A stretch of DNA of 39,527 bases from a virus. Shown in pieces: positions 18,756-18,973 of the stretch (within the stretch, counting starts at the first letter, position 1; each line of letters begins with the position of its first letter). The notes under the pieces were generated by a model, which was given only the letters and a program-made list of their open reading frames with translations, was not told the DNA's origin and ran no database searches. The DNA lies in UHGV virus genome UHGV-0152919; one strand, 5' to 3'. The translations under genes were made by a program, and so were the position numbers.

Positions 18756-18782
18756 AAAAAAAACGCCCACCCGAAGATGGGC
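18756..18782 (-). terminator. intrinsic terminator-like hairpin with T8 tract on the minus strand
   Basis: Minus strand reads gcccatcttcgggtgggcg followed by tttttttt; ~180 nt downstream of the dmt stop and of the operator pair. Confidence 0.5.
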
Positions 18783-18944
18783 AAACTGGAAGCTCGTAAC
18801 GCACTTCGGAGTTGCCACTTAGGCGCATGGTCAACCTGGCAACTCGGTGGTTTGTCTGGGAGGACTAGGCCCAGCCATGCTTACCGCCGCGCCTGTCGCG
18901 GCTAACAGCTAAATCGCTCTATAAATCACGATTCATTGAGGCGA

Positions 18945-18973
18945 TATTACACTAATAAATTTATTAGAGCAAT
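18945..18973. promoter_or_regulatory. bipartite, partly palindromic C1 operator (Op72-like), probable ban-operon promoter
   Basis: Perfect 17/17 ATTGCTCTAATAAATTT on the minus strand (18957-18973) overlapping a 15/17 copy on the plus strand (18945-18961); core palindrome ctaataaatttattag; overlaps the dmt stop codon. Confidence 0.7.

Follow-up and report, generated by a model that had tools for sequence, protein, structure and literature searches.

The viral genome UHGV-0152919, a stretch of 39,527 nucleotides (nt) hereafter referred to as the window and used for all coordinates unless a phage is named, carries between its dmt gene and a pair of transfer RNA (tRNA) genes a locus that, judged by its sequence, is the regulatory start of the ban operon of bacteriophage P1. 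Our interpretation of this locus, to which we assign a probability of roughly 0.7, is that a promoter controlled by the C1 repressor would drive synthesis of a short structured RNA ending at a terminator hairpin, that read-through of this hairpin would feed the tRNA genes and ban, and that the hairpin would also end transcripts arriving from dmt.

In a lysogen, C1 bound to the operator Oban-ab would cover the -35 and -10 hexamers of the promoters P1ban and P2ban together with the dmt stop codon, and transcription would be blocked; this behaviour of the repressed state in vivo is established knowledge for P1. Upon derepression, RNA polymerase would start near position 18937 (P1ban) or 18951 (P2ban) on the minus strand and would transcribe, in this order, a structured element of ~100 nt, a short hairpin and a strong terminator capped by a UUCG loop and followed by eight uridines (U8). 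Polymerases stopping at this point would release a C1-repressed RNA of ~180 nt from P1ban or ~195 nt from P2ban, which may accumulate and act in trans, and which may be trimmed by RNase E to an Hfq-type small RNA (sRNA) of ~50-60 nt, by analogy with the DicF locus. Termination would be only partial, the structured element may influence the extent of read-through, and the polymerases that pass would continue into a module resembling transfer-messenger RNA (tmRNA), followed by tRNA-Asn, tRNA-Thr, tciABC and ban. The RNA length predicted by mapping the promoters to the U tract, ~180-195 nt, agrees with the ~180-200 nt put forward in the initial annotation of this locus.

The divalent C1 operator at the dmt stop codon

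Alignment of positions 18300-19100 of the window gave identities of 100% with Escherichia phage JL22 and of 98.9%, over 801 nt, with phage P1 (AF234172 / NC_005856), and on this sequence basis the window is that of a P1-like phage. The dmt open reading frame (ORF; 754 aa, minus strand, 21228..18964), recognised from the ORF list and the P1 annotation of Dmt, ends in a TAA codon (18966-18964) that lies inside a perfect copy of the C1 operator. This copy, Oban-a (Op72a; 18957-18973, minus strand), matches ATTGCTCTAATAAATTT at 17/17 positions with no mismatches and corresponds to a protein_bind feature in AF234172, whilst the second copy, Oban-b (Op72b; 18946-18962, plus strand), reads ATTACACTAATAAATTT, matches at 15/17 positions (2 mismatches to ATTGCTCTAATAAATTT) and is likewise annotated in AF234172. 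The two copies are inverted relative to each other and overlap by 6 bp. The perfect operator with an inverted, overlapping 15/17 copy across the dmt stop codon, described from the letters alone in the initial annotation, was thus recovered by operator matching and ORF coordinates, and alignment to AF234172 and its feature table identified the 'palindromic operator' as exactly the annotated divalent C1 operator of P1, Oban-ab (formerly Op72ab), which consists of two monovalent halves and is stated there to 'control expression of ban'.

Sites matching ATTGCTCTAATAAATTT with up to three mismatches occur nine times in the window against 0.22 expected, a 40-fold excess that was not reached in any of 100 shuffles. 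Seven further C1-operator-like sites (1-3 mismatches) are located at window positions 3133, 5225, 5274, 8898, 22479, 37595 and 39265, and Rfam searches returned the P1 C4 antisense RNA at 38999-39084 and its a1b1 targets at 39152-39204; these additional sites and RNAs are as expected for an immunity circuit of the P1 type.

Two promoters were mapped onto the window from AF234172, both overlapping the Oban-ab operator and both directed along the minus strand. The sigma-70 promoter P1ban (18944..18972) has a -35 hexamer TTGCTC (18972..18967), a 17-nt spacer and a -10 hexamer TAATAT (18949..18944), from which transcription would begin near 18937; a simple sigma-70 promoter scan of the window sequence gave no call at P1ban. 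P2ban (18958..18989), a prediction only, has a -35 hexamer ATGACG (18989..18984) and a -10 hexamer TAAATT (18963..18958), and would start near 18951. Binding of C1 to Oban-ab in P1 and the repression of ban are known from the literature, and the Op72ab/P1ban/P2ban system was reportedly described by Lobocka et al. in 2004. The window shares with P1 Op72ab the sequence, the two overlapping inverted 17-mers, their placement with respect to dmt and the tRNA genes, and a 'dicF-like region' with the same terminator; the differences are confined to a few single nucleotide polymorphisms and to the terminator tail, which is T8 in the window and T6 in P1. In AF234172 the 'dicF-like region' is followed by tRNA-Asn, tRNA-Thr, plp/upl and tciABC and, further on, by ban. 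The arrangement of operator, promoter and terminator is therefore already annotated in P1 and is not new. The initial annotation was sound on the geometry of operator and hairpin, but did not recognise this existing P1 annotation, the structured leader element or the second RNA module downstream, which are described below.

A conserved structured leader and its terminator

The intrinsic terminator (18756..18783, minus strand) was identified by a terminator scan, by folding and by comparison with relatives, and consists of a stem (18783..18764) closed by a UUCG loop and followed by U8 (18763..18756). The stem, UGCCCAUC-UUCG-GGUGGGCG, has eight pairs, five of them G-C, and forms an isolated structure in the minimum-free-energy fold of the predicted 186-nt leader. 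Scanning and folding bore out the earlier description of a GC hairpin with a T8 tract on the same strand ~180 nt past the operator, the distance between the two being ~175-190 nt on the minus strand. Terminator-like sites are not enriched as a class in the 5.5-kb region scanned (9 against 5.6 +/- 2.5 in shuffles), and this hairpin is kept by all the P1-like relatives that were examined, among them phage D6, in which the upstream leader is unrelated.

No further terminator-like site was found on the minus strand in 21125-18783, hence the hairpin is the first stop past dmt as well. It might accordingly be asked whether the hairpin serves only to mark the 3' end of the uhr-hrdC-dmt unit, the sequence from operator to hairpin having no function as RNA, a reading with which both the position as first terminator-like site after dmt and a distance of 180 nt, suitable for a 3' untranslated region, would agree. 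We consider this very unlikely, given that phages without an upstream dmt also conserve ~100 nt of this sequence, with compensatory changes and behind early promoters, and that D6 has the hairpin in other surroundings, preceded by a pmgS-like gene and a leader that is unrelated.

The conserved part of the leader is an element of the minus strand at 18808..18903, which was delimited with a hidden Markov model (HMM) of its core, its homologues and counts of base pairs, and which forms part of the P1 'dicF-like region'. As annotated, the latter is 102 bp long (P1 68791-68892, equivalent to approximately 18849-18746 of the window) with the terminator at its end. Searches with the core HMM (nhmmer) detected one copy in the window (18903..18808, E=3.4e-22) and none in HK022 or in D6. 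The conserved core, GGCGCGGCGGYAAGYAUGG ... CCGRGUUGYCAGGUUGACCAURCGCYURAGUGRCAAC with a variable hairpin between its two parts, is present in the window. The structure proposed for the element comprises a 5' hairpin, a helix CGGU/ACCG (CGGY/RCCG across relatives), the variable hairpin (CUGGG/CCCAG in the window) and a 9-bp hairpin, GAGUUGCCA/UGGCAACUC, whose 19-nt loop GGUUGACCAUGCGCCUAAG is almost invariant; a pseudoknot is proposed between this loop and the junction, formed by GCAUGG/CCAUGC (GYAUGG with CCAURC across relatives). Among 26 sequences, 96.5% of cells are standard pairs, compared with 25-52% when the partners are slid, and four pairs have changed on both sides, the sequences being mostly close relatives and the covariation amounting to few independent events. 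Comparison of the element with the E. coli rrn operon and with tmRNA revealed no significant complementarity or similarity.

The best evidence for the structure of the element is the variable hairpin, of which 37 distinct versions of 25-51 nt were observed, most of them still folding as a hairpin. Their stems differ (CUGGG/CCCAG, CGGGG/CCCCG, CAGGUG/CACCUG and CUGGGGU/GCUCCAG), and one version carries a 25-nt stem extension. The lengths of 25-51 nt are not multiples of three, which rules out a coding role for the element, and for the same reason the 'hypothetical protein' calls that overlie it in JL22 and SJ46 are probably spurious. The loop of the variable hairpin (18875..18855, minus strand) always contains a CUCC/UCCUU pyrimidine motif, which in the window is CCUAGUCCU and which was also seen in the homologous loci L002, L022, L040 and L060; this motif resembles an anti-Shine-Dalgarno sequence and could serve in Shine-Dalgarno pairing, or could just reflect alternative registers with a G-run.

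Between the element and the terminator, folding places a small hairpin, GAAGU-GCGUUACGA-GCUUC (18789..18807, minus strand), which is identical in relatives of the P1, P7 and JL22 types and is followed by a single-stranded CAGUUU. Small hairpin, CAGUUU and terminator together would make up an sRNA-like 3' part at the position occupied by DicF in the Qin prophage, in a layout typical of Hfq-type sRNAs. A conserved pseudoknotted domain followed by a terminator is also the layout of a riboswitch-like attenuator that senses a ligand or factor, in which case CCGAAG (18809-18804) would pair either with the small hairpin or with the complementary CUUCGG of the terminator (18776-18771) and thereby switch termination. 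We find this scarcely credible: the alternative pairing is not conserved in Qin-type homologues, in which a whole sRNA lies between element and terminator, no Rfam riboswitch model matched, and the terminator is kept in the minimum-free-energy fold.

Distant BLAST searches retrieved the same ~95-nt element from ~43 records of lambdoid phages, including mEp460, cdtI, 2H10, Stx2c phages, Salmonella F1055 and Actinobacillus pPE4, and a pattern scan located it in more than 100 viral contigs of IMG/VR. A scan of a 596-Gb genome contig collection with GCGGCGGYAAGYATGG proved too unspecific to yield a taxonomic survey, only one of 120 loci being real (Escherichia albertii). Lambdoid phages carry the element in their early-left operon, where it lies downstream of the repressor gene and points in the same direction; in 2H10 the cI terminator comes first, followed by a strong PL-like promoter (TTGACA-16-CATAAT), a leader of ~290 nt, the element, a DicF-type RNA with its terminator, and the first early-left ORF. 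A hairpin with a T-run lies 75-122 nt past the core in 58 of 64 unique loci (at +75 in loci of the P1 type), and two of the 64 were later excluded as chance matches to the pattern whilst the other misses are cdtI-type stems skipped by the filter. The bodies between element and terminator vary, and comprise the DicF of K-12, several other versions and the short version of P1. The boxA-like strings GUGCUCUCUUC and AGUGCUCUUUCC occur upstream of the element in lambdoid phages (at 2975-2995 of L129, and just upstream in L006 and L007); such strings are also found ahead of the tmRNA-like module in many contigs, in which a long hairpin has them as its 3' strand.

The similarity of the window to Qin comprises the ~100 nt upstream of the 53-nt DicF and not mature DicF itself. 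The Rfam DicF model (RF00039) gave no match in the window at its gathering threshold or even at E<=10, and membership of the P1 region in the DicF family was consequently rejected. The Qin dicF locus (ydfC-dicF-dicB) nonetheless has the same order of parts, namely the homologous ~100-nt element, a short RNA body, an intrinsic terminator and genes that need read-through, whereas P1 lacks the mature DicF sequence, has a shorter and different 3' body, and has placed the element behind a promoter controlled by C1 instead of by DicA or cI as in Qin-type loci. In the Qin homologue, DicF has been reported to be produced by termination and also from read-through transcripts (PMC6582626). On these comparisons, the 'dicF-like region' of P1 would be better defined as a conserved, structured and probably pseudoknotted leader RNA common to P1 and many lambdoid early operons.

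An RNA at the head of an early operon and ahead of terminators invites comparison with putL and putR of phage HK022, and the element could be a cis-acting processive antiterminator that modifies RNA polymerase to pass the hairpin and later terminators; the hairpin would then stop only those transcripts in which the element had misfolded, and the short RNA would be a by-product. The element begins ~35 nt past the inferred Pban start in P1 and ~290 nt past the PL-like promoter in 2H10, and putR is located ~270 nt from PR (PMC9378689). An intrinsic terminator that must be passed to reach the early genes follows in nearly all loci, the loops are nearly invariant whilst the stems vary, as expected of an RNA that binds a conserved host machine, and neither Pfam nor PHROGs recognised an N-like protein where the early-left operon begins in those phages that were checked, although N proteins are small and diverse and their absence is weak evidence. 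In addition, an 8-mer and a 9-mer (ACCAUGCG and GCGCGGCGG) are in common with putL, the 8-mer including U28, the base of putL that contacts the beta' zinc-binding domain (PMC9378689). The order of the two strings differs between putL (HK022 ~4311, minus strand) and the window (18895-18825), the first string being that with U28.

Neither blastn nor nhmmer revealed significant similarity to the put sites or to the nun-cI-cro region of HK022, so that homology to put was rejected and put retained as a functional analogy only. The secondary structure also differs, in that the element has three or four helices and a pseudoknot where put has two stems with a triplex, and CAUG, which in put is a bulge touching the polymerase, is helical in the element (covarying pair 70-129). 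Furthermore, DicF arises by termination at the homologous site, and read-through there is therefore not complete. Taken together, we regard a put-like function as rather unlikely, and favour a leader that yields a short RNA and permits some read-through.

The tmRNA-like module past the hairpin

Three nucleotides past the U tract of the terminator begins a second conserved RNA module (18753..~18600, minus strand), which was recognised through a weak Rfam match, BLAST, complementarity and folding. An Rfam scan by E-value returned a weak tmRNA_permuted match at 18768..18662 (26 bits, E=0.0025 on 701 nt), driven by the sequence GCA AAC GAU GAU CUG AUG AUG GUA GCG GCC UAA; altogether, the weak matches of the module were to tmRNA_permuted, beta_tmRNA and alpha_tmRNA and scored 26-33 bits, below the gathering score of 47. 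Diverged P1-like phages, D6 among them, show hardly any variation in this stretch, and distant BLAST searches retrieved it from 328 phage records of unrelated groups (P1-like phages, Drexlerviridae, Schitoviridae, Ackermannviridae and Lederbergvirus HK620), in which, among the records listed, it was unannotated or overlapped only by 'hypothetical protein' calls. Of 5,426 complete E. coli genomes, 670 contain it as well, and the records listed carry no RNA annotation for it. In some contigs a promoter, TTGACA-N17-TAGATT, would set the 5' end of the module RNA at the start of the module.

In comparison with tmRNA (ssrA, including its two-piece forms), the module carries a tag-like frame (GCA..TAA, 18694..18662, minus strand) that reads ANDDLMMVAA*. 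In all 122 instances retrieved, this frame lacks a start codon and has exactly ten codons, running from GCA to TAA or TAG, and 19 variants of the peptide were found, among them ANEEMYLAVA, ANDEQFLAVA and ANDDVVLMAA, the last of which is spelled in seven synonymous ways; E. coli has the tag ANDENYALAA. As in tmRNA, the frame is initiated by GCA and ends with a hydrophobic residue, Ala-Ala and a stop, the resume codon is preceded by U at -5 and A at -4, and a pseudoknot follows the tag. The latter is of the H-type (~18650..18610, minus strand) and has covarying stems, ACGGGG/CCCCGU and GUCG/CGAC in P1 as against GUGAGG/CCUCAU and CCAG/CUGG in HK620. The differences are that no tRNA-like domain is detected in the module and that its 5' domain is antisense to host tmRNA instead of homologous to it. 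Neither ARAGORN, even at -ps60 and in 79 contexts, nor Rfam found a tRNA-like domain (acceptor stem with G3-U70, T-arm and CCA), and a complete tmRNA gene in the leader was rejected on the negative ARAGORN results at relaxed thresholds and the sub-threshold Rfam scores. A 2014 survey of RefSeq viruses recorded ssrA only in mycobacteriophages, naming two more from outside its dataset, Bacillus phage G and DS6A, and the copy in mycobacteriophage DS6A is little more than a tRNA-like domain (PMC4131195). Our literature search yielded no report of this module.

The 5' domain of the module (18753..18716, minus strand) is complementary to nt 68-105 of host tmRNA, a segment spanning the 3' strand of PK1, the resume codon and tag codons one to five; the conserved blocks of the domain, GUUUUCGU, GCGACU, UUUGCGG and UUUUUA, have their complements in E. 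coli tmRNA at nt 97-105, 86-91 and 68-80. Among 69 unique elements, 66 have a best duplex with tmRNA that begins at nt 67 of the latter, and in 98.6% of elements this duplex surpasses in strength the one formed with downstream sequence of the element itself. Pairing amounts to 28-32 bp in those elements that were drawn out, and the stretches of tmRNA left unpaired are those at which the phage RNA has its spacers of variable length. Shuffling lent moderate support (for the window, 8 of 300 with dinucleotide shuffling; for five phages, 0-2 of 200 with mononucleotide shuffling). The argument for anti-tmRNA pairing draws mainly on the consistency of the site.

The close apposition of hairpin and module raises the question of whether the hairpin is functionally a piece of the module, forming its 5' boundary or a protective stem, with termination being incidental. 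The homology of D6 to P1 starts exactly at the hairpin and runs on through the module, whilst the upstream leader differs, and in other phages the module is directly preceded either by a hairpin of unrelated sequence or by a promoter of its own. Against this stands the tract of U6-U8 after a GC-rich stem, which is the signature of an intrinsic terminator and has no counterpart upstream of the module in phages other than the P1-like, and the roles of boundary and terminator are in any case not exclusive. We judge it decidedly unlikely that the hairpin is in essence a part of the module, and continue to treat it as the terminator of the ban leader.

The module could function as an antisense block of host trans-translation, or as a trans-acting coding piece that swaps the tag. 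A bolder proposal, which we offer tentatively and hold to be doubtful, is that the Pban leader consists of two uncharacterised phage RNA devices joined at the hairpin, the first a put-like though non-homologous element that would let polymerase pass the terminator and the second a tmRNA-pairing RNA with its own tag template, common to P1-, T1-, N4-, Vi1- and P22-like phages.

tRNA genes are frequent neighbours of the module: 46 of 79 contexts have them between -900 and +1,100 nt relative to where the tag begins, always on the same strand and for the most part 130-900 nt downstream. In the window, tRNA-Asn (18290..18215) and tRNA-Thr (18212..18137), both on the minus strand and identified by ARAGORN, Rfam and the P1 annotation, are the first annotated genes reached by read-through. 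Between the module and tRNA-Asn lies a near-perfect 18-bp hairpin, CAACAGGUAAGGGCGCUG / CAGCGUCCUUUCCUGUUG (18572..18496, minus strand), which shows compensatory and mismatch-repairing changes in D6 and in IMG/VR relatives and may be an RNase III-type processing site. Just upstream of tRNA-Asn, a weak tRNA-like call (Gly, gcc; 18376..18304, minus strand) was made by ARAGORN only at -ps70; the sequence is conserved in D6, and may be either a tRNA-like processing signal or a tRNA that has degenerated. In the related P1-like contigs L018 and L269 the cluster begins with a different tRNA, Arg-TCT, and a Tyr tRNA is inserted. A further tRNA with anticodon CAT (16434-16509, minus strand), called Met by ARAGORN, corresponds to the third tRNA gene of P1, whose product, once modified with lysidine, is probably tRNA-Ile2. 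Elsewhere in the window, a strong Rfam match to the sok antitoxin RNA (89.7 bits, 35367-35541, minus strand) points to a module of the hok/sok type.

Roles of the hairpin and wider significance

Three roles had been suggested for the hairpin, these being to end the dmt transcript, to attenuate the ban leader and to define a short repressor-controlled RNA, and they are not mutually exclusive. Homology favours the latter two, because the stretch between operator and hairpin is the element that in lambdoid phages nearly always precedes a DicF-type sRNA, a terminator and genes expressed by read-through.

Several observations weigh against the overall interpretation given at the outset. A U8 terminator placed ahead of essential genes of the operon would require substantial read-through, and the pairing of the leader element is backed by few independent covariation events. 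Given the negative Rfam result for DicF, a DicF-like function cannot be transferred to the P1 RNA. The duplex energy of its 3' RNA with the ftsZ leader was equalled by 48% of shuffles, in a test of low power that gives a fraction of 0.12 even for authentic DicF. Searches of the literature returned no transcript data for the region and nothing relevant on P1 dicF or ban-leader RNAs.

Two things are added here to the known operator and promoters: the 'dicF-like region' is recast as a leader element that is structured and conserved, and an unannotated module related to tmRNA is described directly past its hairpin. The leader element is a candidate for a second, N-independent device of RNA antitermination, or for one of sRNA biogenesis. 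The module joins an anti-tmRNA domain to a tag frame of the tmRNA type and, if functional, would represent a new route by which phages manipulate ribosome rescue.

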